Virus record (IMG/VR): IMGVR_UViG_2879742664_000006
Reading direction: 5' to 3' (one strand)
Source of the DNA: a virus
Taxonomy: Duplodnaviria; Heunggongvirae; Uroviricota; Caudoviricetes
DNA: 33,145 nt
Part shown: one piece after another, positions 1 to 31,426 of the stretch
How the letters are laid out: the number at the start of each line of letters is the position of its first letter
Numbering within the stretch: position 1 is the first letter of the stretch
Program-made: the position numbers and the translations under genes
The notes under the pieces: model-generated
The model's input: only the letters and a program-made list of their open reading frames with translations
Database searches by the model: none
What the model was told of the DNA's origin: nothing

Positions 1-55
1 GTGAACCGCCCCGGGAATCCTGGAGACTAAACTCCCTGAGAAAGAGGTAAACAGG

Positions 56-382
56 ATGACTAAAAATACTCGTTTTTCCCCCGAAGTCCGTCAGAGGGCG
101 ATTCGTATGGTTCTGGAAAGTCAGGGCGAATATGACTCACAGTGGGCGGCAATTTGTTCCATTGCCCCAAAGATTGGCTGTACACCGGAGACTCTGCGTG
201 TCTGGGTACGCCAGCATGAGCGGGATACCGGAGGCGGTGATGGCGGGCTCACCACCGCTGAACGTCAGCGTCTGAAAGAGCTGGAACGTGAAAATCGTGA
301 ACTGCGCCGCAGTAACGATATCCTTCGCCAGGCTTCCGCTTATTTTGCGAAGGCGGAGTTCGACCGCCTCTGGAAAAAGTGA
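56..382 (+). CDS. IS3-family transposase OrfA (HTH DNA-binding subunit)
   Basis: 108-aa [29 protein letters not shown]... with leucine-zipper-like C-terminus ([18 protein letters not shown]), typical of IS3-family OrfA. Confidence 0.9.
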
Positions 383-1269
383 TGCCACTGCTGGATAAGC
401 TGCGTAAGCTGTACGGGGTCGGACCGGTATGCAGTGAACTACATATTGCCCCGTCAACGTATTACCACTGTCAGCAACAGCGACATCATCCTGATAAACG
501 CAGTGCCCGTGCGCAGCGCGATGACTGGCTGAAGAAAGAGATACTGCGCGTATACGATGGGAATCATCAGGTATACGGTGTGCGTAAAGTCTGGCGTCAG
601 TTGTTACGGGAAGGTATCAGAGTGGCCAGATGCACTGTGGCACGTCTCATGGCGGTTATGGGACTTGCCGGTGTTCTCCGGGGTAAAAAGGTCCGTACGA
701 CCATCAGCCGGAAAGCCGTTGCCGCAGGCGACCGCGTAAACCGTCAGTTCGTGGCAGAACGACCTGACCAGCTGTGGGTGGCTGATTTTACTTACGTCAG
801 CACATGGCAGGGCTTCGTCTATGTGGCGTTCATTATTGATGTGTTTGCCGGATACATCGTGGGGTGGCGGGTCTCATCGTCCATGGAAACGACATTCGTG
901 CTGGATGCTCTGGAGCAGGCGTTATGGGCCCGTCGACCGTCCGGCACGGTCCATCACAGTGATAAAGGTTCTCAGTATGTATCGCTGGCCTACACACAGC
1001 GGCTTAAGGAAGCCGGATTACTGGCATCAACAGGAAGTACAGGCGACTCGTATGACAACGCGATGGCGGAGAGCATCAATGGTCTTTACAAAGCGGAGGT
1101 AATACACCGTAAGAGCTGGAAAAACCGTGCAGAAGTGGAACTGGCCACACTCACGTGGGTGGACTGGTATAATAATCGACGATTGCTGGAAAGGCTGGGC
1201 CACATCCCTCCGGCAGAAGCAGAAAAAGCTTATTATGCTTCCATCGGAAACGATGATCTGGCAGCCTGA
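379..1269 (+). CDS. IS3-family transposase OrfB (DDE catalytic domain), normally made as an OrfAB fusion by -1 frameshifting
   Basis: 296-aa ORF overlapping the orfA stop in the -1 frame; integrase-core-like residues (WVADFTY... HSDKGSQY... [15 protein letters not shown]). Confidence 0.9.
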
Positions 1270-1311
1270 GTTCACAGATAAAACACTCTCCAGGAAACCC
1301 GGGGCGGTTCA

Positions 1312-1430
1312 TGCTGAACGTGCGGCCCGTGACTCATTGACCAGAGCAATCCGAAGTCTGTATGACGTGGCTTTTTACGCTGATGATCTGGATGCACTTA
1401 ACGAACTTTCCGAGCTGATCTGTGCCGCAG
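1312..1430 (+). pseudogene. 3' remnant of an unidentified gene trapped between the IS629 end and an IS2 end
   Basis: Open frame ...AERAARDSLTRAIRSLYDVAFYADDLDALNELSELICAAVD runs from the IS629 boundary into the IS2 terminal repeat; no start codon of its own. Confidence 0.3.
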
Positions 1431-1695
1431 TGGATTTGCCCCTATATTTCCAGACATCTGTTATCACTTAACCCATTACAAGCCCGCTGCCGCAGATATT
1501 CCCGTGGCGAGTGATAACCCAGCGCACTATGCGGATGCCATTCGTTATAATGCTCGAACGCCTCTGCAAGGTTCTTTGCTGCCGTTAACCCGTCTGGTTT
1601 GGGCATGATACTGATGTAGTCACGCTTTATCGTTTTCACGAAGCTCTCTGCTATTCCGTTACTCTCCGGACTCCGCACCGCCGTGTTCTTCGGTT
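1431..1695 (-). mobile_element. IS2 right-end fragment (terminal repeat plus 3' end of insD), truncated by IS911
   Basis: Near-identical (1 mismatch seen) to the right end of the complete IS2 at 31416-31680; minus-strand ORF 1442..1768 encodes the InsD C-terminus ([25 protein letters not shown]...). Homology stops abruptly at 1695/1696 where the IS911 repeat begins. Confidence 0.8.
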
Positions 1696-1767
1696 TGAAG
1701 TGGCACACTGAATTTGGCCACCTGAACAGAGGTGATATGCTCACCTCAGAACAACACAGGTGCTCCA

Positions 1768-2936
<1,169 letters not shown>

Positions 2937-2944
2937 CCACTTCA

Positions 2945-3550
2945 AACCGCAAAAAAGCGAACGTCATGCGCCCGGTGGAGTACCAGAACGGCGAAGCATT
3001 CACTATCCGTAACGTACAGGTTATGCCTGAATCCATTCCGGCTGGCTTTAAGGCACTGGCTGACATGAGTCCGTTTGAATCCCTGCTGATTGTGGATTTG
3101 GGCGGAACCACGCTGGATGTGGCAAAGGTTCAGGGGCAACTGGCAGGTATCAGCCAGGTGTTTTGCGATCCACACGTGGGCGTTTCTCTGATGGCCGATG
3201 CCGTACTGTCGGTGATGGCCACTAACGGTATGCGCACCAGTCACCACATCGCCAATACCATTATCGAACATCGCCATGATGAAGCCTGGCTGCGCCAGCA
3301 CATCCACAATGACGCGCATTACGCCAGCCTGATGGCGGTAATTCGTGAAAAGGAAGAAACACTGAAACAACGCGTGATCCGCGCGCTGGCGGTTTTTTCG
3401 GGTTACGGGCGGGTGATGGTTGTCGGTGGAGGGGCGGAGATTGTGGCACCCGCTATCCGCGAAGCCTGCGGAGTTAATGCGACTTTCATCGCGGACGGGG
3501 TGCCACAGTTTGCTCTGGTTAATGGGCTGTACGCAATGGACAAGGAGTAA
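2945..3550 (+). pseudogene. ParM/StbA-like actin-type plasmid segregation ATPase, 5'-truncated by IS911 (C-terminal ~200 aa remain)
   Basis: Contains the actin-fold phosphate-2 motif LIVDLGGTTLDVAKV, preceded by VMPESIPAG and followed by VMVVGGGAE, as in R1 ParM (from memory). The frame opens exactly at the IS911 boundary. Confidence 0.7.
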
Positions 3551-3554
3551 ACCA

Positions 3555-3866
3555 ATGACGACTCCAACCAGACGGATAAGTTTCTATCTGAAGCCCACCG
3601 CCGTCAAGAACGAAGGAGAAGCATGCGCCTGGCTGGACAGCCTTACACCAGAAGCCCGCAAAAGCGGCCAACGCGTGGCTTTTCTGGCCGGGCTGGCACT
3701 TCTGAAAATGAATCCGGCAGAGGCTTATCGACTGGCTGCATGGGCTGGTGATGAAGCGTTATCAGTGACACAAACCAGGACAGAACGCCCCGCATCACAG
3801 CCAGTATCAACCGCACAGATAACCAGTCAGATGGCCGGAAATATCCGGGCGTTATTTCCTGAATAA
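3555..3866 (+). CDS. ParR/StbB-like small DNA-binding partner protein (putative)
   Basis: 103-aa ORF immediately downstream of the parM-like gene, RBS aaggag at 3542-3547; N-terminal ribbon-helix-helix-like region (RRISFYLKP). Assignment rests on position and size. Confidence 0.45.
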   Translation: MTTPTRRISFYLKPTAVKNEGEACAWLDSLTPEARKSGQRVAFLAGLALLKMNPAEAYRLAAWAGDEALSVTQTRTERPASQPVSTAQITSQMAGNIRALFPE

Positions 3867-3929
3867 CACAACATCAGGGCGAGTTCGCCCTGCTCTCCAC
3901 CTCAGAACATAAACAAGGAGAACGACTTA

Positions 3930-4520
3930 ATGAGCGAAATCAACTATCAGGCATTACGTGAACGTTATTCACCTGTGCCAGTACCGAAATGCCCTATTTG
4001 CGGCGAGGAAATGTCAATTCAGCGAATATCTGGAGCACAGGTTGTTTATGCCTGCTCCGGTTATGGTGATGATGGAGATTTCAAAATTGGCCGAACTCTT
4101 GCTGACAAACATTATGAAAAATCACGCGTAACAGTGTTGGATGTCGGGGATCCTGAAGTATTGGCGCTACTTGATTGGCTGGAAACCAAAGACAACCGAA
4201 TCGCTGAACTGGAAAAAATCGCCACTGACTATGCACTTAAATTCCAGAAAGCACAGGACGCATTAAAGCATGCCGCTTTGCTGCATAGCAGGACGGCGCA
4301 ACAAACAAATAATTTTGCAGTATCGCTTCCGGACATAAGCGAATATTTCATTAATGACGTATTTCAGCCCTTGCGATACGAGCGGGATGTTGAAAGAGCC
4401 ATCATAAAGGCTGGCGGAAAAGCATTGTGGCAGGAGAAACACGAGGACAGAACGCATCAGTCATGCGATGTAAATTGTGGATGGTTTAGCCCACTGACGA
4501 CAGATAAAAATAACACCTGA
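3930..4520 (+). CDS. Hypothetical protein with N-terminal CxxC...C zinc-ribbon-like motif
   Basis: 196-aa ORF; CPICGEEMSIQRISGAQVVYACSGYGDD; central coiled-coil-like stretch. No recognisable family. Confidence 0.6.
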   Translation: MSEINYQALRERYSPVPVPKCPICGEEMSIQRISGAQVVYACSGYGDDGDFKIGRTLADKHYEKSRVTVLDVGDPEVLALLDWLETKDNRIAELEKIATDYALKFQKAQDALKHAALLHSRTAQQTNNFAVSLPDISEYFINDVFQPLRYERDVERAIIKAGGKALWQEKHEDRTHQSCDVNCGWFSPLTTDKNNT

Positions 4521-4947
4521 TCCCCCTCAAACCAGGGCGATAATCGCACATCGCCCTGCTGCACATTTGCACAATTTTTTTGAACGAATTTTTGCCCTTC
4601 CAGCCCGCGTGGCGGCTGGATCCGTCAAGGATCCGTGCGTGCACAAAAAAACGCGCTTTTTCTGCGCGCAGGTGACGGGGGAACAGCCCGCGTTTCAGGG
4701 GGTAAATAGCGTTCCCTTAACGATGTCGCAGCGACACGACAGAATGGCCGTATTTCTCACGCTGAGCGTGAAAAATACGTGAGGGATTCTGATTTGATGG
4801 GGTGAAAGGTAAGGCCGTCAAAATCGCACTGAGGCGGCGAGAACATGCAGTCAACGCGGTGGGATTGCGTAAGAGTCTGACCGTCGATGGTGGCGATAAA
4901 CTGGAAGGCGTCGTGAAATTATCTGACTGATACAGGAGCTGGAGAGT

Positions 4948-4972
4948 CGGGGCATAAATTTTTTATGCCCCG
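4948..4972. terminator. Stem-loop between convergent genes (putative bidirectional terminator)
   Basis: cggggcataaa / tttatgccccg perfect inverted repeat with a T-rich loop, just 3' of the portal gene stop. Confidence 0.35.
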
Positions 4973-4998
4973 GCGAAGCAGCAGACAAGCGAAGCGCG

Positions 4999-6041
4999 TC
5001 AGGATGTGGGCTGGATGTCTAACAGTGCGTAAGGGTTAAAGCGGATCACCTCTTCGCCAAGCCAGTCATTGATGTGCTTCATGGCCTCCATGACGGGCAT
5101 CAGCTCGTTAATTGCGTAAACCCGCGCGGCCTTCTCCACATCACCAAACGCACTTTTTTCACCCGGCATCGCCCCCATCAGTTGCGGCGGAACGCGGTGC
5201 GCAGCCAGCACATCATCACGGGATGCCGCCTTAACATTCATGAACTCATCCTTTGCGGTGATCTGCTGGAACGGCAAAATTTGCACCCCCTCTTTGCCCC
5301 CGTTGGGCGCATGAATGAGCACGTTTTTAAACGCACCACCACCACGCGCACCCTGTAGCGTTTCTTTCAGGGAGTCCATGCTTTCGCGGTTTACCTGCGC
5401 GGCACCGATGTAGATGATGCACCCGGCGTGGGATCCGTTGTCGTAATACAGTTTTCTGAACATGTCCGCCGAATGAGACAGGCTGGCCGAGAGTAATGCG
5501 CCGAGATATTCCGGCATGCCGTAGATTTCCTGGTTAATGTCAGGATTCATCAGGTGACACACTTTGCCTGGGCGAAACTGAAACGCATCCTTGCCATCCT
5601 GCACATACCTCCATGATTCAAGATCGCTTCCGCGTCGCATGTATTTCGCCAGGGCGTGCCGTAATTTAAGCGGTTCGCCGAGCATATTGCTTCGAAGCTC
5701 AAGGAATGCGTTACCGAACACAAACCAGTCCAGCGCCAGCGCCAGCGCCGAGAAATCCTGCCGGGAAAGCAGCGGGTGCGGGATGTAGCAACCGAGCAAT
5801 ACATTGCGCTTAAAATAAAGCGCAGACTGATGCCAGGACGTTTGCCGGGCAGCTCTTGCCAGACCGTACCAGTCCACCGGGGTTTCATACCACCGCCCGT
5901 TATCAGCACAGTACATATTGTCCAGCAGGTCAGGCGATAAGGACCATCAAATGTGAATGCACTGAGCGATGATTCTTTCCTGAGCGCATCAGCGAGATCA
6001 ATGCGTGAACTCATGCGCACTTTTTTATTTTTTCTGCTCAT
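4999..6041 (-). pseudogene. Q: P2 gpQ-like portal protein, interrupted by a 1-bp frameshift near 5917-5946 as sequenced
   Basis: N-terminus MSRKNKKVRMSSRIDLADALRKESSLSAFTFDGP in one frame (track ORF 5550..6041), remainder MYCADNGRWYETPVDWYGL...RFNPYALLDIQPTS in another (4999..5916). Combined length 1043 nt is one short of a multiple of 3. Start overlaps the terminase stop (ATGA). Confidence 0.8.
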
Positions 6042-7792
6042 CAGAACTCCATAACCGTGAAACGCTCGTTTTCTCCTTCGCCGCCAATCGGTTCGTTAAT
6101 GACAGCAAGCATGGTTGCCCACGCAAGGTCGCCGTGGCTGATCCCCCTCGCTCGGTCCGTTTCGTAAGTGATAAAGCCGCCCGGTGTTTTCACCTTACGC
6201 ACGGCGTTAAAGGCCGCGACCAGCTCGCGTTCGGCGCGATCGTATTCCCACCGCCCGGCACGCATTATTTGCAGCATTTTCAGTACCAGCGACCGTTTTG
6301 ATGACAGCGTGAAGGTGTACGGAATAGCGGCAGGGAAAAACCGTTTCACTATCTGATAAACAGCCTCCCCGTTCCCGCCCGTCACATCAATGCCGATGTG
6401 TTCCACGTTGTAGCGACACGTGAACTCTTCAATGACTCTGGCCTGTTCTTCAAACTCCAGCCCCTGAACGCGTCGCGTCTCCACCGTTCGAAAACGGCCA
6501 CCAGGAACAGACGGAGGAACCACCACGGACACAGCGCCGCTGTCGCCGTTGCCACTGCTGCCGTTTGCGTCATACCCAATCCATACCGGACGATTCCCCA
6601 TCGGGCGGGGAGCAAAAGGTTTCCAGTCTTTCCAGTCGTCGTATCCGTCAACGCCGCAGCCAATCAGGATATTCAGGTTAAATGCCGATTCCCCTTCGCG
6701 GACAAACTCACACATATAGAGATTGAGGAACTCGTCTTCGGTGTTTTCATCACGAATTTCGTCGATATCGGTGTGTTTCCAGCCGTGATTAACCACATCT
6801 TCCAGCGTGACAATTTGCCGCCACGTCCGGTCAGGGCAGATAAGCCCGTTATGCAGCGTTTTCCAGTCCACAGAAAAACGCTGGCGTTTATGCGAGGCCT
6901 TTTTCTCGTTCCAGCGGTCGCCGTTCCAGTAGGCGTATGCCTCGTGCGTTTCGGTGGATGGCGTGGAGAAGTAGGTGCGCCGCAGTCCGCTGAGGGTTGC
7001 CATAGCGCCAGCCACCTTGCGCAGTTCAGCAAAGCGACTGACCCAGAAAAATTCATCAAAATAAAAATTGCCCGTATAGGACTGTGCCGACGCAGCAGAA
7101 GTGCCGAGAAAATGCAGCTCTGCGCCGTTGGAGAGGATGATTTTATCGCCCCCTTTCAGCTCCACATCAACTTCAGCCGCGGCCTTCTGAATAATGCTTT
7201 TAAACTGGAACGCCTGACGACGCGACGCAGACAAAAAAATCTGGTTACGCTGGTAAGGTTGCGCCACATCGTCACGCAGCGCCATCAGCAGTGCTTCCTG
7301 TGCAAAATACCAGGTCGCCCCAATCTGTCGGGATTTCAGGATCATCCTGTTACGTATCCCGGCTTCCCTGCAAAGGGTCAGGGAGTCAAACCAGCCCCGC
7401 TGATGCCACTCCAGCCTGCTGATGATTTTTTCCCGCAGTGCGGCAATCTGTTCCGGCGTGAAATGATTTTTGAGTTTTTTCGCCCGGCCTTTCTTTCCTG
7501 CGGCCATCACATCCGGCTGGCCATCATGCAGCTTTTTAAGCTGCCGGGTCAGCAGGTCTATTTCCTTAAAGTCACCGCCTGTTTTATTCTGTTTTTCAGT
7601 AAGCTGGATGAGGCGCGCATCGATGGACTGCGTGACACGCTGCCCGGGTGGCGTTTCATCCCACTGGTCACGTTTTTTCCACGCATAAATCGTGTTCGGG
7701 TTTATTCCCATCAGACGTGATATTTCTGCGGGCGGATAACCCTGCCAGTAAAGTTGCCGCGCACGCTGGCGCACAAAAGCGTCCTGAATCAT
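6041..7792 (-). CDS. P: P2 gpP-like terminase large (ATPase) subunit
   Basis: 583-aa intact ORF upstream of the portal gene and divergent from the scaffold gene, the P2 P-Q arrangement. Confidence 0.95.
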   Translation of the reverse strand: MIQDAFVRQRARQLYWQGYPPAEISRLMGINPNTIYAWKKRDQWDETPPGQRVTQSIDARLIQLTEKQNKTGGDFKEIDLLTRQLKKLHDGQPDVMAAGKKGRAKKLKNHFTPEQIAALREKIISRLEWHQRGWFDSLTLCREAGIRNRMILKSRQIGATWYFAQEALLMALRDDVAQPYQRNQIFLSASRRQAFQFKSIIQKAAAEVDVELKGGDKIILSNGAELHFLGTSAASAQSYTGNFYFDEFFWVSRFAELRKVAGAMATLSGLRRTYFSTPSTETHEAYAYWNGDRWNEKKASHKRQRFSVDWKTLHNGLICPDRTWRQIVTLEDVVNHGWKHTDIDEIRDENTEDEFLNLYMCEFVREGESAFNLNILIGCGVDGYDDWKDWKPFAPRPMGNRPVWIGYDANGSSGNGDSGAVSVVVPPSVPGGRFRTVETRRVQGLEFEEQARVIEEFTCRYNVEHIGIDVTGGNGEAVYQIVKRFFPAAIPYTFTLSSKRSLVLKMLQIMRAGRWEYDRAERELVAAFNAVRKVKTPGGFITYETDRARGISHGDLAWATMLAVINEPIGGEGENERFTVMEF

Positions 7793-7946
7793 TGCTCCCC
7801 CTGAGTAATTACAGGAAGATTACCCGCGCGCGAAACTGTTCTCCTTAACCCTCTGTTCTGGCCGTTTTCTTACAACAAAAGCCCTTTGTATCAGCCTGTT
7901 ACGCTTTGCCATCATGACTGAAGAACCAGTCAGAGGGGCAAAAACT
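7793..7946. promoter_or_regulatory. Divergent intergenic region between terminase P (-) and scaffold O (+); expected site of late promoters
   Basis: 154-bp non-coding gap between divergent operons; RBS gagggg 8 nt before the O start. No activator-binding site could be confirmed by eye. Confidence 0.3.
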
Positions 7947-8783
7947 ATGGCTAATGAAAAAAAGACATCCCGCAAAAAGTTTCGCGTGGCTGTCTCCGGA
8001 TCAACTGTTGATGGCCGTGAAATCAGTCCGGTGCATCTGCGTGAAGCCGCCGAGAACTTCAACCCGGATGTTTACGCTGCCCGCGTGAACGTTGAGCACT
8101 ATCTCTCGCCATGCCCGTCAAGCGAATTTTCCGCAATGGGCGATGTCACCGCACTGAGTACGGAAGACATTACGGAAGGTCCGCTGGCCGGACGTACTGC
8201 GCTGTATGCAGAAATCGAACCGACCGAGCGCATGAAGCAGCTTGTTGCGGACGGCAAGAAAATCTATTCCAGTATCGAACTGCACCCGCAGTTCTCCGTT
8301 AACGGGCGCGCCTATCTGGTCGGGCTGGCGATGACCGACACCCCGGCAAGCCTGGGCACTGAGCGCCTGAAATTCACGGCACAGCAACGTCAGGCGGTGA
8401 TGACGTTTAACAGTATCCAGGGTGAAGCGCCGCTTATCTCCGAAGCCATCGAGTCTGAAATCATCGAAATGGCAGAACAACGCCAGGAAGAAGGCACCCA
8501 GTGGTTTAACCGCGTAATGGGGATTATTGGCCGTGGCCGCAAAGCGGATGACGCCAGTTTTTCCCGTATTCAGGAAGCGGTGGAAGGCGTCGCAACGTCA
8601 CAGGCCGACATTATCGACCGTTTTAATGTGCTGGAAACCCGCCATCAGCAGGACCGCCAGAAAATTACGTCACTGACCACAGAGCTGGCAGCACTGAAGG
8701 AAAAACTGCGCACGCAGGACGGCGATCCGCAGAACCGCTTCACCGCAACGGGCGCAGCCTCCGACCAGCTGGCCGACTTCTGA
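7947..8783 (+). CDS. O: P2 gpO-like capsid scaffolding protein
   Basis: MANEKKTSRKKFRVAVSGSTVDGREISPVHLREAAENFNPDVY...; acidic C-terminus; position between P and N. Start taken at the internal ATG 7947 with an RBS. Confidence 0.9.
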   Translation: MANEKKTSRKKFRVAVSGSTVDGREISPVHLREAAENFNPDVYAARVNVEHYLSPCPSSEFSAMGDVTALSTEDITEGPLAGRTALYAEIEPTERMKQLVADGKKIYSSIELHPQFSVNGRAYLVGLAMTDTPASLGTERLKFTAQQRQAVMTFNSIQGEAPLISEAIESEIIEMAEQRQEEGTQWFNRVMGIIGRGRKADDASFSRIQEAVEGVATSQADIIDRFNVLETRHQQDRQKITSLTTELAALKEKLRTQDGDPQNRFTATGAASDQLADF

Positions 8784-8806
8784 TTAGACAAAGGAGCAAA
8801 TTTTTT

Positions 8807-9858
8807 ATGAATCTGGTGATGTCAGATATTACCCGCAACAAGCTGGGTTGCTATATGGCGCAGCAGGTGTCGCTTAATAATATCCCGGTATCTGCACTGG
8901 TGTCGCGATTTACCGTGGAACCCGCGGTGCAGCAGCGTTTTGAAAACGCCTCAAAGGAAAGTACCGAATTTACGAAAAAAATAACGTGATCGGCGTGACC
9001 GACCAGAAAGGCGAAAAAATCCTCCTGGATACCACAGGACCGATTGCGCGCACGAATACCAGTTATGACGGCACAAAACGCCGTAACCCGAATAACGTGG
9101 TTGATCTGAAAAACCGCAAATATCAGTGTGAACAGGTGAACTACGACACGTTTATTTCGTATCCGCAGCTTGATGCCTGGTCGGCACACCCTGATTTTCA
9201 GTCCCGCATCAGCGCACAGATTGCCCGACAGGTGGCGCTTGACCGCATCATGATCGGTTTCAACGGCACGTCTCACGCGGATGAGTCCAACTTCAGCACC
9301 AACAAGCTGCTTCAGGACGTTAACGTGGGCTGGCTGGAGCACATCAGAACCGACGCCAGCGAACGCGTTATGAATGACGTGACGCTGACCTCCCGCAACA
9401 TGGACAACACCGTGGCGCACGCGGGTAAGTATGCGAACGCTGATGCACTGGTACAGGACGCGCGTTCATCCCTGCTAGATGAATGGCACAAGGAAGCTGA
9501 CGACCTCGTGGTGATTATGGGGCGCAACCTGTTTAACTCGCTGCGTCTGCCCGTGCTGAACAGCATCAGCGGCCAGAATCCCAATGCGGAATTACTCGCC
9601 GGGCAGCTCATCCTGTCATCGCGCACCATTGGCGGGCTGGGCGTGTTCCTTGCGCCGTTCTTCCCGGATGCAACGATGCTGATCACCTCGTTCAACAACC
9701 TGTCGATTTACTGGCAGAAAGGTTCAATGCGTCGCCTGATGAAAGACGAGCCGGAATACAACCGCATCGCCACCTACCAGTCCATCAATGACGCTTATGT
9801 CGTTGAAGACTATGGCAAGTGCGCGATGGTTACTGGCCTGAAGTTCGCCGACAGCTAA
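8807..9858 (+). pseudogene. N: P2 gpN-like major capsid protein, frameshifted in an A-run at about 8975-8986 as sequenced
   Basis: Track ORFs 8807..8989 (ends ...ESTEFTKKIT*) and 8986..9858 (...VIGVTDQKGEKILLDTTGPIA...) are both capsid-like and adjacent frames; adding one base in acgaaaaaaataacg gives continuous ...TEFTKKINVIGVTDQ.... Confidence 0.85.
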
Positions 9859-9903
9859 TCAACTCACGGCGGGCATCATGCCCGCCTGTAACGGAGAGCA
9901 AAA

Positions 9904-10650
9904 ATGATTACTCCTGCACAACAACACTGGCAGAACGTGATGGCACAGCGCGCAGGCCGGGCGAATGAAGGCGTGGACCACGCCGCGCGTACCGCGCATG
10001 AAGAGGTGCTGTATCGTCTGCGTCTGGCACAGGCCCGGCTTAAGGGCGTACAGGCCAGAAGCGCGAAAGCCGCCATCAAAAAAGAGTTGTTGCCGGATTT
10101 TTCCGGCTGGATTGAGGGAACGCTGGAGGCTGACGGCGGGCAGCAGGATGAAGTGATTGCCACGCTGATGGTGTGGGCGATTGACTGTGGCGATCTTCCG
10201 CTTGCGCTGCGTATCGGCGCGTATGTAGTCCGTCACAACCTCATCATGCCGGATAACTTTGGCCGTACTGCTGCCACGGTACTGACCGAAGAAATCTGTA
10301 ATCCGGTACTGACGCAGGCCGGGACGGATGCCGACGCGGATTTGTCCGCCTTTATCGAACCACTGGACACCCTCCGGGAGATTGTCACCGACCAGGACAT
10401 GCCGGACGAAGTGCGCGCCAAATTATGCAAAGCGTGCGCCTTTGCCCGCCGTGGCCTGAGTGATGCGGACAGCATGGCCCTGTCACTGAAGCTGCTGCGC
10501 GAAGCAATGCACCTGAACCCGAACGCAGGTGTGAAACGCGAGATTGCAACCCTTTCCCGCGCCCTGAAAAAAGCCGATTCCGCAGCCGAACCAGAAGACG
10601 CCAGCGCACAGCAGGCGCAGGACGAAAGCAGCAAAAAGCAGCAAAAGTAA
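9904..10650 (+). CDS. M: P2 gpM-like terminase small (endonuclease) subunit
   Basis: 248-aa ORF following the capsid gene, as in P2. Confidence 0.9.
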   Translation: MITPAQQHWQNVMAQRAGRANEGVDHAARTAHEEVLYRLRLAQARLKGVQARSAKAAIKKELLPDFSGWIEGTLEADGGQQDEVIATLMVWAIDCGDLPLALRIGAYVVRHNLIMPDNFGRTAATVLTEEICNPVLTQAGTDADADLSAFIEPLDTLREIVTDQDMPDEVRAKLCKACAFARRGLSDADSMALSLKLLREAMHLNPNAGVKREIATLSRALKKADSAAEPEDASAQQAQDESSKKQQK

Positions 10651-10817
10651 AAAGACAACGCGGAAGCCTGCAACACGAAAAACCACCGCGACGCAGAAGG
10701 CGAAGCGCGGTTAACGACTGACCCCGTCAGCGGGCGGCGTGCGCGGTGTTCCAGTTTGACTCCGTGACCGTTTACACCGCGCACCCACCGCCCGATTTTT
10801 TTTCAGGAGTGAACCCC

Positions 10818-11312
10818 ATGACTATAGTTGCCAGAACTGAACCCGGACCCGCAGAGGACGACATCACCGATACCGATGATGGCGATACCCGCATTTCAGC
10901 GGGTGCATTCTGGCCGGATATTGTGCTGCGCGAGCTGCGTCTGGCGGTACGACTGCCGGGGCGCGTGACCACCTCCCGCCTGCTGCATACTGCCACCGGG
11001 GCTGTGGCACACGTTACCCGCGAGCTGGAAGCATGGCAGCAGGAACAGCAGGCAGCTGGCCATCAGACGCTGGCCGATGTTCCGGCACCCGTAATTAACG
11101 GAGAAAGCGTCAATCTCTGGCACTGGCGCAATGCTGTTTATACCGCCACGCGCGCCCTGATTCTGGAGCGTTATCGTGATGCAGACACTACGGACAAGGG
11201 CGACCGCCGGGCAGACGCTCTGGATATACAGACATCGGATTTGTGGCGTGATGTGAGCTGGGCCATCTCTGACATTCTGTGCCGCCCGCGAATCTTTGCG
11301 GAGTTGTGCTGA
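10818..11312 (+). CDS. L: P2 gpL-like head completion protein
   Basis: MTIVARTEPGPAEDD...; RBS caggag before ATG 10818; stop overlaps the next start (TGATG). Confidence 0.85.
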   Translation: MTIVARTEPGPAEDDITDTDDGDTRISAGAFWPDIVLRELRLAVRLPGRVTTSRLLHTATGAVAHVTRELEAWQQEQQAAGHQTLADVPAPVINGESVNLWHWRNAVYTATRALILERYRDADTTDKGDRRADALDIQTSDLWRDVSWAISDILCRPRIFAELC

Positions 11313-11512
11313 TGAAAGTGAAGGCACTGGAAGGCGACACCGTGGATTCGCTCTGTTTCCGGTACTACGGCACGACGCAGGGCGTCACCGAAAAGGTGCT
11401 GGATGCCAACCCCGGACTCTGTCAGCAGGTATTTCTGGACGCCGGGCAGGAAGTGGAGATGCCGGAGCCGGAGAAGAAGAAACGAGAAATGATTCAGTTG
11501 TGGGGGGAGTAG
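11312..11512 (+). CDS. X: P2 gpX-like small tail protein
   Basis: 66-aa MKVKALEGDTVDSLCFRYYGTTQGVTEKVLDANPGL...; position after L. Confidence 0.8.
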   Translation: MKVKALEGDTVDSLCFRYYGTTQGVTEKVLDANPGLCQQVFLDAGQEVEMPEPEKKKREMIQLWGE

Positions 11513-11514
11513 CA

Positions 11515-11838
11515 GTGAGCACCATTCAAACAGGGATCACAGAGCAGGTTATTGCGTGGCTCTTTGACCACCTGCCAACGGTGTATGCAGTAGGCGCGGC
11601 GGTCAGCATTTCCGCGCTGATGAGCCTTTATGACGGACGAACACTGGTTCAGACCGTAACGGGATCGCTGGCGTGCGGCGTTCTTGCCATGGCCGTGGCC
11701 GGGTCGTTGCGCTTCTTCGGGTTTCCTGAAGATGCCGTGACGTTTATCGGCGCATCAATCGGTTTTATGGGTGCAGAGAAAGCACGCGACAAGGTTATTG
11801 CGGCCTTTAATCGCAGGGTGAAGGAGAAGGACGAATGA
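11515..11838 (+). CDS. Putative holin
   Basis: 107-aa GTG-initiated ORF with RBS gggggag; hydrophobic helices (WLFDHLPTVYAVGAAVSISALMSL; LACGVLAMAVAGSL) and charged C-terminus; directly upstream of the endolysin. Confidence 0.6.
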   Translation: MSTIQTGITEQVIAWLFDHLPTVYAVGAAVSISALMSLYDGRTLVQTVTGSLACGVLAMAVAGSLRFFGFPEDAVTFIGASIGFMGAEKARDKVIAAFNRRVKEKDE

Positions 11839-12227
11839 GCAACACATTTAAATTCAGCAGCCGGAGCGAAAAGAATTTGCAGGGTGTAAATCCTGATCTG
11901 GTGAAAGTGACCCGACGGGCACTGGAAATCTCGGAAGTGGATTTTGGTATCACCGAAGGGTTGCGCAGCCGTTACCGCCAGAAGCAACTGGTGGCCACGG
12001 GTAAGAGCCAGACCATGAACAGCCGCCACCTTACGGGGCATGCCGTGGATGTTGTGGCTTATATCGGCAGCCAGATGTCATGGGAATGGCCGCTGTACGA
12101 AAAAATCGCAGCAGCATTCAGACAGGCCAGCCGGGAACTGAATATTCCGGTGGAATGGGGCGGCGACTGGAAGACCCTGAAAGACGGACCGCATTTTCAG
12201 TTACCACACGGAGCCTATCCGGCATGA
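11835..12227 (+). CDS. Endolysin, peptidase M15 (VanY/L-Ala-D-Glu peptidase-like)
   Basis: 130 aa; zinc-binding signature SRHLTGHAVD (SxHxxGxAxD) and downstream DGPHFQL; overlaps the holin stop (ATGA). Confidence 0.8.
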   Translation: MSNTFKFSSRSEKNLQGVNPDLVKVTRRALEISEVDFGITEGLRSRYRQKQLVATGKSQTMNSRHLTGHAVDVVAYIGSQMSWEWPLYEKIAAAFRQASRELNIPVEWGGDWKTLKDGPHFQLPHGAYPA

Positions 12228-12631
12228 AGCTCTGGCCCACGCTTGGCGTCGCTTTCCTTCTGACTGCCGGATGGGGAACATCCATGCGTCTGTCGTGGTC
12301 GCTGGGCCGGGAGAACGCCAGAAACGAAGCGCAGGCCAGCACCCTGAAAAGTACCGCCGACACCCTGAATATCATCAGCGCCGGGGTACAGGATATGCAG
12401 CAGGTGCTGGCGCAACTCCGCGTGGAAAATCAGCAACGCAATCAGGACGGAGAGGTAAGACGTGAACAGCTACGCAACGATATTGCAAAAGATGAATGCG
12501 CCCACGCTTTGCCTGACGCTCGTTTTACTGACAGGCTGCGCAGGCACGCAGAACGCGCCACTGCCAGCGCCGTCAGTCCGGCTTATACCGCAGACGCTGA
12601 CCATACCGGTAACGCCTCCCCCCTTCCCTGA
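12224..12631 (+). CDS. i-spanin (Rz/LysB-like inner-membrane spanin)
   Basis: MKLWPTLGVAFLLTAGWG N-terminal membrane anchor then coiled-coil-like region; start overlaps the endolysin stop; contains the nested o-spanin in another frame. Confidence 0.6.
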   Translation: MKLWPTLGVAFLLTAGWGTSMRLSWSLGRENARNEAQASTLKSTADTLNIISAGVQDMQQVLAQLRVENQQRNQDGEVRREQLRNDIAKDECAHALPDARFTDRLRRHAERATASAVSPAYTADADHTGNASPLP

Positions 12632-12782
12632 CACTCCCACATGGGGAAATCTCGGTATATGGGGCGACCGCCTTCTGGATGCACTGGAAACCTGTAACGC
12701 GGATAAACGGGCCATTGAATTACTGGAACAGCGCAGGCTGCAACGACTGAACAACGAGGATAACAACCATGCTGAAAACTGA
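12492..12782 (+). CDS. o-spanin (Rz1/LysC-like outer-membrane lipoprotein), overlapping the i-spanin
   Basis: MNAPTLCLTLVLLTGCAG lipoprotein signal with lipobox LTGC, proline-rich mature part; +1 frame overlap with the i-spanin and extends past it. Confidence 0.6.
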   Translation: MNAPTLCLTLVLLTGCAGTQNAPLPAPSVRLIPQTLTIPVTPPPFPDTPTWGNLGIWGDRLLDALETCNADKRAIELLEQRRLQRLNNEDNNHAEN

Positions 12783-13236
12783 TTCCCTGCGTGAAGCCAT
12801 GACCCGTTCATGCCGATGGTGTCAGGCTAACCCGGAAAAATTCACCATTTTCGTGGAGAGCGGCAACATTGAAACGACCGGAGAAACCCCATCGTTTGTT
12901 TACCGCTATCAGATGGTGATGTTTGTCATGGATTACGCCGGGGAGCTGGACGACCTCACGCTGCCGCTGCTGGCGTGGTTATCCGAAAATCAGCCACAGT
13001 TGTTGCTCAACCCTGAGCGTAATCAGGACATCAAATTTTCCGCCGTTATCAATGACGATGACAGCGCCGATCTCCTGTTTACGCTCCCCCTGCGGGAACG
13101 CGTTCGCATCACGCGCAGCAGTCAGGGCACACCGCAGGCAGAACACCTGCTGGAGCCAAAACCCCGCCTGCCATCTTCCGAAGGCGACTGGTCGCATGTA
13201 TTCCAGGATGTGACGTGGGGTGAAAGCGATGGATAA
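12769..13236 (+). CDS. R: P2 gpR-like tail completion protein
   Basis: 155-aa MLKTDSLREAMTRSCRWCQANPEKFTIFVESGN...; position after lysis genes. Confidence 0.8.
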   Translation: MLKTDSLREAMTRSCRWCQANPEKFTIFVESGNIETTGETPSFVYRYQMVMFVMDYAGELDDLTLPLLAWLSENQPQLLLNPERNQDIKFSAVINDDDSADLLFTLPLRERVRITRSSQGTPQAEHLLEPKPRLPSSEGDWSHVFQDVTWGESDG

Positions 13237-13864
13237 GGCATTCACTCGCGTGGATGAAACCTTTGAGGCCATCCGCGACAGCCTGAATCAGCAGGCCATC
13301 AATAACATCGCCAGAAAGCTGGCACAGGATTTACGCCGCGCCCAGCAGGCACGTATCCGGCCACAGAAAGCGCCGGACGGGACCGCATGGACACCACGCA
13401 GACGCCACGTAACCCGGATACAGGAGCGCATTCGCTTTATCTGGAATAACGAAGCACGCACGCTGAAAAACTGGCATCACGACACGGGGAAATACGGGCG
13501 AACCATCACCGGGTGGGATGAGGATAAAAACAGCATCCGCACGTTTTACCGGGATGACATCGACCGCTTTCTGGAAATACGCACCCGGCGCATCAACCAG
13601 GACAGCACAAAGCGCGTCCCCATGTTCGTAAAACTGCGCACCGCCCGCTACCTGAAAGCCCGTGCAGATGCTTCCGGTGTGACGGTGGGTTACAGCGGCG
13701 TGGCCGCACGTATTGCACGCGTTCATCAGTTCGGTGAGCGCGATCAGGTTGCGCCGGGCATTTTCACCGATTACCCGGTACGTGAGCTGCTGGGTATCAG
13801 CCAGGCAGATGAGCGCCTGATTTATAACACGGTGCTGGGCCGGATTGCGGAGGCTGTACGGTGA
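13229..13864 (+). CDS. S: P2 gpS-like tail completion protein
   Basis: ...ARIARVHQFGERDQVAPGIFTDYPVRELLGISQADERLIYNTV... resembles the gpS C-terminus; start could be GTG 13220 or ATG 13229. Confidence 0.75.
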   Translation: MDKAFTRVDETFEAIRDSLNQQAINNIARKLAQDLRRAQQARIRPQKAPDGTAWTPRRRHVTRIQERIRFIWNNEARTLKNWHHDTGKYGRTITGWDEDKNSIRTFYRDDIDRFLEIRTRRINQDSTKRVPMFVKLRTARYLKARADASGVTVGYSGVAARIARVHQFGERDQVAPGIFTDYPVRELLGISQADERLIYNTVLGRIAEAVR

Positions 13865-14442
13865 GCGCAGAACTCATGCGGCTACTGAGCAATATCATCC
13901 GCACCGGGATCATCTCTGAAGTTGATGAGAAGTCCTGGCGCGTGCGCGTTCGCAGCGGCGAACTGGAAACAGGTTGGCTGCGCTGGAACACCTCTCGCGC
14001 GGGAGCCTTCAATGTGTGGCTGCCGCCATCACCAGGCGAACAGGTGGTAATTGCCTGCATTGGCGGCAACCCGGAAACCGCCATGATAATTGGCAGCCTG
14101 TGGAGTGATGCCATTCCGGCCCCCGGCAAAAGCCTGAAAGAAATCGTGGTCAGCGCGCCGGATGGCGCGGTGTTCCGCTACGACGCGGACGCAGGCGCAC
14201 TGAGCGCCAGCGGCATGAAAACAGCCACCCTGCAGGCATCCGTCAGCGTGACACTGGATACGCCCGTCGTGGAATGCACAGACCTTCTGAGAACGGCGAC
14301 GCTTGACGTCACAAAAGGGGGAAAGATGAGCGGCAATATCACGCACAGCGGCGGTAATTTCACCTCAAACGGCATCACAGTGCATACGCATAAACACGGT
14401 GGCGTTAAAGGTGGCAGCGATTCGACAGGAGGCCCGCAGTGA
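13861..14442 (+). CDS. V: P2 gpV-like baseplate spike/hub protein
   Basis: GTG start overlapping S stop; ...VVIACIGGNPETAMIIGSLWSD... and C-terminal ...NGITVHTHKHGGVKGGSDSTGGP. Confidence 0.85.
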   Translation: MSAELMRLLSNIIRTGIISEVDEKSWRVRVRSGELETGWLRWNTSRAGAFNVWLPPSPGEQVVIACIGGNPETAMIIGSLWSDAIPAPGKSLKEIVVSAPDGAVFRYDADAGALSASGMKTATLQASVSVTLDTPVVECTDLLRTATLDVTKGGKMSGNITHSGGNFTSNGITVHTHKHGGVKGGSDSTGGPQ

Positions 14443-14789
14443 CAACCCGCTACACAGGAATGAACCCGGACGGAACGGGAAACCTGAACGATATGGAGCA
14501 CCTGAAACAGTCAGTCAGGGACATCCTGACCACCCCGCTGGCAAGCCGGGTTATGCGACGGGAATATGGCAGCCTTGTGCCTGATTTGATTGACGAACCC
14601 ATGAATAACACCACGCGTCTGCAATGCATGAGTGCTGCCGTGATTGCGCTGACACGATGGGAACCCCGCATTGCCCTGGACGCTATCGACGTTGTCTGGA
14701 AGGCAGGAGGCCGCGCCGGGGTGACGCTGTCGGGCACTGTCATGCAGACCATGCAGAATGTTGAATTAACCATCACGCTGAGGGAGTAA
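14439..14789 (+). CDS. W: P2 gpW-like baseplate wedge protein (gp25-like)
   Basis: 116-aa ORF, GTG start overlapping the V stop; position between V and J. Confidence 0.85.
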   Translation: MTTRYTGMNPDGTGNLNDMEHLKQSVRDILTTPLASRVMRREYGSLVPDLIDEPMNNTTRLQCMSAAVIALTRWEPRIALDAIDVVWKAGGRAGVTLSGTVMQTMQNVELTITLRE

Positions 14790-14792
14790 ATC

Positions 14793-15689
14793 ATGCCTGC
14801 CGTTGACCTTTCACAGTTACCGGAACCCGCCATCATCGCGGAGCCTGACTTTGAGGCAATTCTGGCTGACACAAAGGCCATGATGATTGCGTCCTATCCC
14901 GCCGAACAGCGTGAAGCCGTTTCCGCCGCGCTGGAGCTGGAATCGGAACCCCTTAACGTTATCGCTCAAACCATGTCGTTTCGTGAAATGCTGTTACGCC
15001 AGCGGGTCAATGAGGGTGCACGCGCCTGCATGCTAAGCCACAGCGCCGGGACAGACCTGGACAACCTCGCGGGCAATATGAACACAAAGCGCCTGGTTAT
15101 CACTCCGGCAACGGATACCACCGATGCAGTGATGGAAAGTGACACCTCGCTGAGACTACGGGCGCAACGGGCATATGACGGTCTGAGTGTTGCTGGCCCG
15201 TCAGGTGCATACGAGTATTTTGCACGCAGCGCCAGCGGTCTGGTACGCGATGCGCGGGCCATCAGCCCGTCTCCGGCCAACGTGACGGTTTCCATCCTGT
15301 CCACTGAGGGCGACGGCACAGCAACGGAGGCGTTGCTTAATACCGTTCGCGCCGTTCTGAATGCAGAGGATACCCGCCCGGTGGCCGACCGCCTGACCGT
15401 ACAGAGTGCCAGAATCGTGACATGGCGGCTGAATGCAAAACTGTACTTTTACCCCGGCCCGGAATCCGAACCTATTCTGGCCGCGGCTGAATCGTCGTTC
15501 AGGAAGTGGCTGGCTGAGCAGGGGCTTATCGGTCAGGACGTGGCGTTGTCCGCCATTGCTGCCGCACTGCATGTGCACGGTGTGCAACGCGTGGAGATAA
15601 TCGAACCCACACAGAATATGGCCATCAGCGACATACAGGCGGCGCGCTGTGCGTCATTCACCATCAGCGAAGGTGGACGCAATGAGTAA
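14793..15689 (+). CDS. J: P2 gpJ-like baseplate assembly protein
   Basis: 298-aa ORF in the V-W-J-I order. Confidence 0.9.
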   Translation: MPAVDLSQLPEPAIIAEPDFEAILADTKAMMIASYPAEQREAVSAALELESEPLNVIAQTMSFREMLLRQRVNEGARACMLSHSAGTDLDNLAGNMNTKRLVITPATDTTDAVMESDTSLRLRAQRAYDGLSVAGPSGAYEYFARSASGLVRDARAISPSPANVTVSILSTEGDGTATEALLNTVRAVLNAEDTRPVADRLTVQSARIVTWRLNAKLYFYPGPESEPILAAAESSFRKWLAEQGLIGQDVALSAIAAALHVHGVQRVEIIEPTQNMAISDIQAARCASFTISEGGRNE

Positions 15690-16212
15690 TTCGTTGTTAC
15701 CACCATCAGCCAGCAATTTCATGCGTTGTGCCGAAGCCGTCGGAACACGCATTACAGACATTCCGGTAGACCTCAACACGCTGTGGTCGCCGGACACCTG
15801 CCCGGTGCATCTGCTGCCTTATCTCGCCTGGGCGTTTTCCGTTGACCGCTGGGATCGCAACTGGCCGGAAGAGACAAAGCGACAGGTTATTCGTGATGCA
15901 TGGCTGATACACCGACACAAAGGGACCATCAGCGCACTGCGCCGGGCCATTGAGCCGCTGGGATACCTCATTCGCGTGTCTGAGTGGTGGGAGTTCGGCG
16001 GAGAACCGGGAACATTTACCGTTGAAGTCGGCACGCTGGACAGTGGCGTGACGGAGGAAATGTATCTGGAAATGGAGCGGTTGATTGCTGATGCCCGCCC
16101 GGTCAGCCGCCACATGACAGGGCTGAATATCATTCAGGAAATTCCGGGGGATATTTTCGCAGCGGCGGCAACTTATGACGGTGAAGTTATTACCATTTAT
16201 CCAGGCGATTAA
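15682..16212 (+). CDS. I: P2 gpI-like baseplate/tail protein
   Basis: MSNSLLPPSASNFMRCAEAVGTRITDIPVDL...; start ATG 15682 overlaps the J stop. Confidence 0.85.
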   Translation: MSNSLLPPSASNFMRCAEAVGTRITDIPVDLNTLWSPDTCPVHLLPYLAWAFSVDRWDRNWPEETKRQVIRDAWLIHRHKGTISALRRAIEPLGYLIRVSEWWEFGGEPGTFTVEVGTLDSGVTEEMYLEMERLIADARPVSRHMTGLNIIQEIPGDIFAAAATYDGEVITIYPGD

Positions 16213-16214
16213 GC

Positions 16215-18200
16215 ATGAGTACCACAACACGAAAATTTAAAACCATTATCACCGATACGGGTGCAAAAAAATTAGCTCAGGTAGCCGCGCCAGATGGTAA
16301 GCCTGTCCGCCTGACTCATATGGCCGTGGGCGACGGTGGCGGCACGTTGCCCACACCAGACAGTAAGCAGACCCGTCTGGTGCATGAGGTGTGGCGACAT
16401 ACTGTTAATCGCGTCATCCTGGACGCAACACATCAGAACCGCATTATTGCGGAGCTGGTTATTCCTCCTGAAACGGGCGGATTCTGGATCCGGGAAATTG
16501 GTGTATTTGATGAGCACGGCGATTTAATCGCGGTGGGAAATACTGCCGAAAGTTACAAGCCAGCCGTTGCCGAAGGGTCCGGTCGTGCACAAACATTTCG
16601 CACCATTCTGACCGTATCCAGCACTGCCACCGTGGCGCTTACCGTGGACAACACCATGGTGATGGCCACAGTGGATTACGTGGATGACAAACTGAAAGAG
16701 CATGAACAGTCACGACGTCACCCGGACGCCTCGCTGACCGCAAAAGGCTTTGTTCAACTCAGTAGCGCCACTAACAGCGTGTCTGAAACGCAGGCTGCAA
16801 CGCCGAAAGCAGTAAAGGCCGCGTATGATCTTGCTAACGGTAAATATACTGCGCAGGATGCCAGCACGACGCGAAAAGGCCTTGTCCAGCTCAGTAGCGC
16901 CACCAACAGCACGTCTGAAACGCAGGCTGCAACGCCGAAAGCAGTAAAGGCCGCGTATGACCTTGCTAACGCAAAATATACCGCTCAGGACGCCACGACG
17001 GCACAAAAAGGGATAGTCCAGCTCAGTAGTGCCACCAACAGCACGTCTGAAACACTGGCCGCGACATCGAAAGCGGTTAAGGCGGTAATGGATGAAACGA
17101 ACAAGAAAGCGCCCTTAAACAGTCCTGCGCTGACCGGAACGCCAACAACGCCAGCTGCGCGACAGGGAACGAATAATACCCAAATCGCAAGCACGGCTTT
17201 CGTTATGGCTGCGATTGCCGCCCTTGTAGATTCGTCACCTGACGCACTGAATACGCTGAACGAGTTAGCGGCGGCGCTGGGAAACGCCCCGAATTTTGCG
17301 ACCACCATGACTAACGCGCTTGCGGGTAAGCAACCGAAAGATGCCACCCTGACGGCGCTGGCCGGGCTTGCTACTGCGGCAGACAGGTTTCCGTATTTTA
17401 CGGGGAATGATGTCGCCAGCCTGGCAACCCTGACAAAAGTCGGGCGGGATATTCTTGCGAAATCGACCGTTGCTGCCGTTATCGAATACCTCGGTTTACG
17501 AGAACTCGGCACAAGCGGGGAGAAAATACCGTTACTCAGTACAGCGAATACCTGGACCAATCGACAAACATTCAGCGGTGGCCTTTCTGGGGAACTGTCC
17601 GGCAATGCCGCTACTGCAACAAAGCTGAAAACAGCACGAAAAATTGCTGGAGTTGGTTTTGATGGTTCTAGCGATATTTCAATTAGTGCCAAAAATGTCA
17701 ATGCATTTGCACTCCGACAAACAGGTAATACTGTTAATGGTGATACATCCGTTGGATGGAATTGGGATAGTGGTGCATATAACGCCCTGATTGGTGGTGC
17801 ATCTGCATTAATTCTTCACTTTAATATAAATGCTGGTAGCTGTCCTGCCGTACAATTCCGTGTGAATTATAAAAATGGTGGCATTTCCTACAGGTCGGCT
17901 CGTGATGGTTATGGGGTTGAATTAGGTTGGTCAGATTTCTATACCACGACACGAAAACCTTCAGCGGGAGATGTTGGTGCATATACGCGGGCAGAATGTA
18001 ACTCAAGGTTTATTACAGGTATTCGCCTTGGCGGTCTGTCATCTGTTCAGACATGGAATGGTCCCGGCTGGTCTGACAGGTCAGGTTATGTCGTTACGGG
18101 TTCAGTTAACGGAAACCGTGATGAATTAATTGATACAACACAGGCAAGGCCAATTCAGTATTGCATTAATGGGACGTGGTATAACGCGGGGAGTATTTAA
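16215..18200 (+). CDS. H: Tail fibre protein (P2 gpH-like), current fusion of constant N-terminal part with variable C-terminal segment Sv
   Basis: 661 aa; three tandem 44-aa collar repeats (KGxVQLSSATNSxSETQAATPKAVKAAYDLANxKYTAQDA); conserved crossover motif ...IEYLGLRE... at the gix-like site; followed by an assembly chaperone gene. Confidence 0.9.
   Translation: MSTTTRKFKTIITDTGAKKLAQVAAPDGKPVRLTHMAVGDGGGTLPTPDSKQTRLVHEVWRHTVNRVILDATHQNRIIAELVIPPETGGFWIREIGVFDEHGDLIAVGNTAESYKPAVAEGSGRAQTFRTILTVSSTATVALTVDNTMVMATVDYVDDKLKEHEQSRRHPDASLTAKGFVQLSSATNSVSETQAATPKAVKAAYDLANGKYTAQDASTTRKGLVQLSSATNSTSETQAATPKAVKAAYDLANAKYTAQDATTAQKGIVQLSSATNSTSETLAATSKAVKAVMDETNKKAPLNSPALTGTPTTPAARQGTNNTQIASTAFVMAAIAALVDSSPDALNTLNELAAALGNAPNFATTMTNALAGKQPKDATLTALAGLATAADRFPYFTGNDVASLATLTKVGRDILAKSTVAAVIEYLGLRELGTSGEKIPLLSTANTWTNRQTFSGGLSGELSGNAATATKLKTARKIAGVGFDGSSDISISAKNVNAFALRQTGNTVNGDTSVGWNWDSGAYNALIGGASALILHFNINAGSCPAVQFRVNYKNGGISYRSARDGYGVELGWSDFYTTTRKPSAGDVGAYTRAECNSRFITGIRLGGLSSVQTWNGPGWSDRSGYVVTGSVNGNRDELIDTTQARPIQYCINGTWYNAGSI
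16743..17100. repeat. Tandem 132-bp repeats (about 2.7 copies) inside the tail fibre gene
   Basis: Near-identical DNA units beginning aaaggc(t/c)ttgt(t/c)ca(a/g)ctcagtagcgcc at 16743 and 16875, partial third from 17007. Confidence 0.7.
17479..17504. other. Left gix/cix-like crossover site of the invertible fibre segment (inside H)
   Basis: ttatcgaatacctcggtttacgagaa is the imperfect inverted complement of the site at 20158-20183 (shared core cctcggtttac); lies at the EYLGL codons. Confidence 0.7.
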
Positions 18201-18202
18201 CG

Positions 18203-18736: not shown

Positions 18737-18739
18737 GAG

Positions 18740-18766
18740 AAGGCCCGATATTGGGCCTTAATTTTT
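18740..18766. terminator. Bidirectional terminator hairpin between the two convergent chaperone genes
   Basis: aaggccc-gatatt-gggcctt perfect hairpin followed by aattttt. Confidence 0.5.
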
Positions 18767-19293: not shown

Positions 19294-19296
19294 AAT

Positions 19297-20157: not shown

Positions 20158-20183
20158 TTCCTGTAAACCGAGGTTTTAAATAA
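20158..20183. other. Right gix/cix-like crossover site of the invertible segment
   Basis: ttcctgtaaaccgaggttttaaataa closely resembles the Mu gix consensus as I remember it; inverted relative to 17479-17504; 54 bp upstream of the invertase gene. Confidence 0.75.
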
Positions 20184-20237
20184 TGGCCGTTTCTGGCCTG
20201 CATGGCATGATTTGCGCTTTTGGACGGGAGATTCAGT

Positions 20238-31415: not shown

Positions 31416-31426
31416 TGGATTTGCCC

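Follow-up and report, generated by a model that had tools for sequence, protein, structure and literature searches.

In partition systems of the plasmid R1 ParMRC type, dimers of ParR bind DNA repeats through an N-terminal strand, the C-terminal tail of ParR captures the ends of ATP-ParM filaments, and growth of the filament pushes sister DNA circles apart. The R1 centromere consists of two sets of five 11-bp iterons. In the integrated prophage CGP3 of Corynebacterium glutamicum, the actin-like protein AlpC forms filaments and the DNA-binding adaptor AlpA recognises sites upstream of its own operon; efficient replication of the phage DNA upon induction depends on both proteins (PMC4446434). 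In P2-like phages, the region between gpA and gpQ is a hotspot, and Rousset et al. 2022 (PMC9122126) report a putative plasmid partitioning system at this site in about a fourth of these phages. Both the occurrence of the system and the idea that it serves plasmid maintenance are already in print (PMC9122126). On the function of parMR in P88 or other Xuanwuvirus phages, we found annotations only and no experimental study in the literature.

We analysed a stretch of 33,145 nt (IMG/VR virus record IMGVR_UViG_2879742664_000006, Caudoviricetes), called the window here, in which a preliminary description made from the sequence alone had placed a truncated parMR-like cassette at 2945–3866. Our reading, held with high confidence, is that 2945–3866 is a decayed parM–parR module of the P88-like (Xuanwuvirus, Peduoviridae, P2-family) temperate phages, cut by IS911 and not working here, and that the element is no plasmid but a cryptic prophage in the chromosome of an IS-rich genome of Shigella type. 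The features on which this reading draws are as follows.

2–1311, plus strand: complete IS629/IS1203-type element of the IS3 family, with orfA at 56–382 and orfB at 379–1269 (Pfam HTH_Tnp_1 and rve; terminal inverted repeats; match annotated 'IS3-like element IS1203 family transposase')
1312–1430, plus strand: fragment, about 120 bp, of a DUF4754 early phage gene, covering P88 gp06 residues 24–65 (100% to M19 prophage 2645–2766; 95% to P88 gp06, tblastn)
1431–1695, minus strand: 265-bp end fragment of IS2 (99.6% to the full IS2 copy at window 31416–31680; Pfam rve_3)
1696–2944, plus strand: complete IS911 (99.8% to elements annotated 'IS3-like element IS911 family transposase')
2945–3550, plus strand: parM remnant, codons 119–320 (Pfam, BLAST, tblastn and structure match)
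3555–3866, plus strand: parR/stbB, intact, 103 aa (PF10784, PHROG 2515)
3930–4520, plus strand: Ead/Ea22-like gene, in the variable cargo slot downstream of parR (PF13935, E 3.6e-32)
4999–6041, minus strand: portal gpQ pseudogene with a frameshift near 5928–5931, P88 portal residues 1–38 and 41–348 lying in different frames (tblastn)
6041–7792, minus strand: large terminase gpP, intact (residues 1–583 at 97.6% to P88)
33005–33145, plus strand: hok/gef-family toxin gene (PF01848, E 4.1e-07; 97.8% to P88 gp52)

The first gene of the pair had been described as a ParM-like actin-fold ATPase remnant, and its matches identify it as a genuine ParM remnant. In the translation of window 2930–3547, the ParM C-terminal domain PF21523 was matched over its full profile (1–159 of 159, E 2.3e-69), and the N-terminal domain PF06406 only over its last 39 positions (119–157 of 158). 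Window position 2945 corresponds to position 8001 of the E. coli M19 prophage, that is, to nucleotide 355 and codon 119 of 320 in the intact M19 parM (annotated at 7647–8606 in M19 prophage coordinates), and homology begins exactly there (BLAST). From that point, window 2945–12515 is collinear with M19 prophage 8001–17576 at 97.7% identity over 9.6 kb (BLAST), and residues 119–319 of P88 ParM match the window at 99.0% identity (tblastn). In an intact relative, residues 2–316 align with ParM of plasmid R1 (PDB 1mwk) at E 1.2e-92, by which a different actin/Hsp70-fold protein is ruled out. In NCBIfam, the remnant gave only a sub-threshold PRTRC_D match and ParR gave nothing. A complete actin-fold ParM with both domains and the nucleotide-binding loops is present in the intact relatives (319 aa) but not in the window copy, which lacks a start codon, a promoter and residues 1–118, including the N-terminal IDDGSTNIK nucleotide-binding loop. 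The open frame starts with a TTG at 2930, its first five codons lying inside the right inverted repeat of IS911, and the ORF listing has no internal stop codon in the remnant.

The second gene begins 5 nt after the parM stop, as ParR adjoins ParM in type II ParMRC systems, and its identification as a ParR-like partner holds: the product matches PF10784 (Plasmid_stab_B, E 3.1e-23, Pfam) and PHROG 2515 ('partition protein', E 1.7e-57). It is identical to the E. coli M19 allele; the strand region at its N-terminus reads RRISFYLKP and its C-terminal tail NIRALFPE, and both end motifs are common to the ParR proteins of phage D6 and of IncL/M plasmids. No solved structure matched ParR at E ≤ 1. The preliminary description would have been mistaken had the actin-like gene belonged to another fold family without a partition partner, and what we found is a true ParM with an adjoining ParR. 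On its sequence, the window module descends from a type II ParMRC system.

Directly upstream of the remnant, the right inverted repeat of IS911 (2921–2944, GGCCAGTTTTTGTTGACCACTTCA, 24 bases) adjoins parM codon 119. Compared with the intact M19 prophage, positions 2767–8000, about 5.2 kb, are missing (BLAST). They hold the rest of the early operon, gene A, the junction of gene A and parM with its candidate centromere repeats, and parM codons 1–118. Searches with P88 proteins found no int, C, cox or gpA anywhere in the window (tblastn), and with all 53 P88 proteins ParM residues 1–118 were absent from the entire window (tblastn). We also considered that the parM 5' end or gene A had been moved elsewhere in the window by an IS-mediated inversion; the same tblastn search with all 53 P88 proteins found no such segment. 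A parC-like repeat array, which the preliminary description proposed to look for upstream, cannot be found here: the native DNA has been deleted, IS911 now lies immediately upstream of parM, and IS911, the IS2 fragment and IS629 have replaced what was there.

The closest record with the same IS911–parM junction, within a 6-kb collinear match, is Shigella boydii NZ_CP049283.1, so the truncation is one that a Shigella-type lineage has passed on by descent. This record is filed as 'plasmid unnamed' and is 26.8 kb long and linear; its content is the same degraded prophage and IS elements only, with no replication gene among the 20 features listed for bases 1–23161. It is probably a mislabelled chromosomal contig.

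The window copy has lost the candidate centromere, the start of the gene and the 118 N-terminal residues that bind ATP, and so the system cannot work here. Our account is that an IS-associated deletion of about 5.2 kb took most of the early region, gene A, the repeats, and the start of parM with its ATP-binding N-terminus, leaving a whole parR that would have neither partner nor target. It might be argued that the intact parR, or an IS911–ParM fusion read from the TTG at 2930, keeps some activity, perhaps regulating as a DNA-binding protein or causing incompatibility with related parC sites, since parR has its full length, with the same allele as in intact prophages, and no stop interrupts the remnant. 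We regard this as very unlikely. A sigma-70 promoter scan of window 2700–5000 found no promoter-like site, the native upstream region has been deleted, and the remnant lacks its nucleotide-binding N-terminus, while the intactness of the sequence is explained by low divergence (about 98% identity to intact prophages) at a time when neighbouring genes decay.

Decay of this kind extends through the rest of the prophage. Matches to 37 P88 proteins, most of them at 93–100% identity, follow the P88 order except in the invertible tail-fibre segment (tblastn). Collinear late genes of P2 type, high identity to P88 and a parMR module between the gene A and portal positions together place the element among the P88-like phages. 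It is not, however, an intact inducible genome: int, C, cox and gpA are lacking and several late genes are damaged. Decayed late genes lie at 4999–6041, 8807–9858, 9904–10650, 24758–25265 and 26607–27716. The portal, major capsid and tail-tube genes are frameshifted (tblastn against P88), the small terminase (terS) retains 247 of 266 residues, codon 41 of gpD is an in-frame stop, and a complete IS2 at 31416–32745 splits the 3' part of ogr. Thus, the window copy of parMR is an ordinary IS-cut relic inside a dead prophage.

Two further segments drew our attention. An invertible tail-fibre segment at 16215–20837, which carries alternative ends of the H/G genes and, at 20220–20837, a Cin/Gin-type invertase, lies in the orientation opposite to that of the P88 record. 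Between gpD and ogr, a 1039-aa ORF (27965–31084, plus strand) has 32–34% GC, compared with about 55% for the prophage, and had no match in Pfam, PADLOC or PHROG; an identical gene in E. coli ETEC4088 is called 'MFS transporter' by PGAP. The ORF may occupy a cargo slot of P2 type, as a moron or defence gene that is so far uncharacterised.

In intact relatives, parMR is a standard component. P88 gp17 and gp18 are parM and parR, directly after the replication endonuclease (gene A) and ahead of the cos/portal end, and the order gpA–parM–parR–(variable)–portal is found in P88 and in E. coli M19, O157:H7, ST131 and 2013C-4081. We queried 5426 complete E. coli genomes with the stretch comprising the upstream repeats and parM–parR, and found the module in 1308 (24%), at 1454 chromosomal and 2 plasmid places. 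This share agrees with the fourth or so of P2-like phages given by Rousset et al. (PMC9122126). Among the 40 matches listed, 'replication endonuclease' was annotated beside the module in every full-length match. All 14 phage records other than D6 that have this ParM are P88-like, at 95.6–100% amino acid identity, and 249 contigs in IMG/VR encode the phage-type ParM. An other-genera scan of genome contigs returned only three loci, at 98–99% identity, from E. albertii, Salmonella enterica and a contig labelled Vagococcus. The last, NZ_JBQPOM010000071.1, is a 226-kb contig labelled Vagococcus sp. whose ParM is 98% identical to an E. coli prophage protein, and we suspect contamination or mislabelling.

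Sequence variation was followed in 80 loci, comprising the 74 best-matching IMG/VR viral loci (of the 249 contigs) and six prophage, phage and genome loci. ParM was 319 aa long in all 80. Pairwise dN/dS for parM in intact relatives ranged from 0 to 0.17 and was typically about 0.07, which indicates strong purifying selection; judged by these ratios, the gene does something. ParR occurred in 49 variants among the 80 loci, with residues 1–14 (MTTPTRRISFYLKP) invariant, a core of two main types, a hypervariable linker and a conserved C-terminal N-I-x-x-[LF]-F-P motif. ParR is thus mosaic across prophages, whereas ParM stays at least 98% identical. A comparison of ParR alleles with the upstream repeats for co-variation was uninformative, and no co-variation was to be expected, because the N-terminal 14 residues of ParR do not vary.

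The preliminary description had suggested, from the partition genes and from a Hok-family ORF at the right edge of the window, that the element resides on a plasmid, derives from a phage-plasmid, or acquired plasmid stability genes as cargo. The Hok-family assignment stands (PF01848, E 4.1e-07). The gene is, however, a normal member of the P88 lineage, gp52, whose position in that lineage is between ogr and attR. The right 10 kb of the window is 99.7% identical to the end of a prophage on the E. coli ETEC4088 chromosome, where ogr and hok are followed by ihfA–pheT–pheS, hok standing immediately before ihfA. The window itself runs from the IS629 end to the hok stop codon, and its chromosomal placement rests on these relatives.

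A home on a plasmid, or descent from a phage-plasmid with parMR and hok as its maintenance genes, is a reading that we consider extremely improbable, even though both are classic plasmid stability functions and two database records seem to speak for it. One is the S. boydii record, which shares the IS911–parM junction and is labelled a plasmid, but which is linear and holds prophage and IS DNA only. The other is NZ_CP148288.1 (1–34461), a circular 34.5-kb molecule deposited as an E. coli plasmid that holds a whole P88-like genome. In another strain of the same project, however, its phage sits in the chromosome, with 100% identity over 25 kb. The circle contains the genes from int to hok and a com/methyltransferase pair; it may be phage DNA released by excision or induction, or a true episome, and an episomal state is therefore conceivable for the lineage. 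Against residence on a plasmid stand the 1454 chromosomal as opposed to 2 plasmid places and the chromosomal right end in ETEC4088. The relatives are flanked by host genes and carry integrase, C repressor and Cox, as integrated prophages do, and descent from a phage-plasmid accordingly found no support. The window has no replication functions of its own (tblastn against P88), and with gene A, the integrase and part of parM gone, autonomous maintenance is impossible; that it is no plasmid is again a conclusion drawn from relatives.

Comparison with plasmid databases, which had been proposed as a check, gave the same answer. Plasmid ParMs are at most 53% identical to the phage-type ParM, and the phage-type ParM occurs in six PLSDB records, five of them large (228 kb to 1.4 Mb) and one a whole 34.5-kb phage genome. 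The distance of the plasmid ParMs and the small number of PLSDB records point to an old capture, not to recent plasmid traffic. The idea of plasmid stability genes acquired as cargo therefore survives as an old, lineage-wide trait of P88-like phages and fails as an event at this locus. The preliminary description had itself allowed that chromosomal residence, with these genes common at the locus, would count against it, and this is what the 1454 chromosomal places show for the lineage.

The position of the module was also correctly described. It lies in the slot where P2 carries old and tin, upstream of the portal gene (4999–6041), with the large terminase gene (6041–7792) beyond. This slot is a documented defence hotspot (PMC9122126), and the genes just 3' of parR differ from one prophage to the next, like hotspot cargo, so that parMR itself might be taken for an anti-phage or anti-plasmid defence or exclusion module in the gpA–gpQ hotspot. 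We give this very little credence. ParM, ParR, Ead and the 1039-aa ORF had no PADLOC match at E ≤ 0.1, ParM matches R1 ParM over its full length (E 1.2e-92), and ParR has the Plasmid_stab_B domain and the end motifs of its family. Moreover, parMR is constant and the variable slot is downstream of it, the content after parR differing among P88, ST131 and other prophages. In E. coli ST131 MNCRE44, a minus-strand pair (4030–5409 in the coordinates of the ST131 locus analysed) replaces Ead/Ea22 and encodes a DUF4760 protein and a 279-aa protein that had no significant Pfam match; the pair looks like typical hotspot cargo.

We return to parMR as a partition module of the P88 lineage and to what it may do where it is whole. 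Upstream of parM, intact relatives have two 38-nt repeat blocks, 73 nt apart, each with a CGGGA-N8-TCCCG inverted repeat, and one of the blocks lies within the last codons of gene A. In M19 prophage coordinates the blocks are at 7504–7541 and 7577–7614. Across 53 variants, the repeat arms are nearly invariant and the spacer positions variable. The whole stretch upstream of parM is well conserved, blocks included, and there are only two blocks; in an IncL/M plasmid relative, parM is likewise preceded by a pair of repeat blocks with the same 73-nt distance between them. The two blocks may tentatively be taken as a candidate centromere (parC) of the lineage. The gap between gene A and parM in the intact locus is 76 nt, and a scan found no consensus sigma-70 promoter or plus-strand terminator in it. 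We therefore infer expression with the early replication operon, and parMR is perhaps co-transcribed with gene A.

The intact cassette would thus comprise a 319-aa ParM ATPase, a 103–104-aa ParR adaptor and two repeat blocks, with ParR presumably binding DNA through its conserved N-terminal strand and ParM through its conserved C-terminal tail. By analogy with R1, ParR on the repeats would cap ATP-ParM filaments that separate sister circular phage genomes, and the most plausible place of action would be extrachromosomal phage DNA, after infection or induction. It is conceivable, though we think it doubtful, that in intact P88-like phages ParMR, with the repeat blocks as its centromere, forms an active actin-based machine of this kind, either segregating a hok-backed episome that lasts over generations (a facultative phage-plasmid) or positioning replicating genomes in lytic growth in the manner of AlpAC. 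Were that so, no integrating enterobacterial myovirus would have been shown to have such a system before, and the window would hold only a dead copy of it.

A broken cassette in a broken prophage matters little and is no pointer to a plasmid; the window is an example of the IS-driven prophage decay typical of Shigella-like genomes. The lineage is another matter, as about a quarter of E. coli genomes have an integrating phage with a strongly conserved, putative partition system of actin type. Should it turn out to support episomal persistence or to organise lytic replication, phage and plasmid biologists would be interested.

Among described systems, P88 is the closest: its ParM is 99.0% identical over residues 119–319 and its ParR 95.1% identical to the window, the gene order is the same, and hok is its gp52. 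Unlike P88, the window lacks parM codons 1–118 and the region upstream, has lost its early region and has several late pseudogenes. The gpA–gpQ hotspot of P2, the old/tin locus, is the same genomic slot, but parMR is no recognised defence system and is constant in the lineage, with the variable cargo downstream of parR.

Intact ParM of the lineage aligns with that of R1 ParMRC, including the IDDGSTNIK and DLGGTTLD loops; parM is followed by parR in both, and the ParR proteins share PF10784. In contrast to R1, the lineage module belongs to a P2-family phage that integrates; the nearest plasmid ParMs that we found are of IncL/M type and at most 53% identical, and the upstream gap of the module is only 76 nt with two 38-nt blocks, all of which is absent from the window. 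Outside the P88-like phages, a ParM homologue at E ≤ 1e-10 turned up in one phage record alone, that of the P1-like plasmid prophage D6 (StbA/StbB, 47.5% identity). The D6 ParR shares the N-terminal strand region and a C-terminal N-x-x-x-x-L-P motif, and a similarity to P88 StbA is mentioned in the D6 record. D6, however, is extrachromosomal, a plasmid prophage of 91 kb, and its upstream region, 267 nt long, is rich in iterons, whereas P88-like phages integrate. With AlpAC of CGP3 the likeness is a functional analogy only, as host phylum and phage type differ; AlpAC is a tested precedent for the role that ParMR would have on phage DNA after infection or induction.
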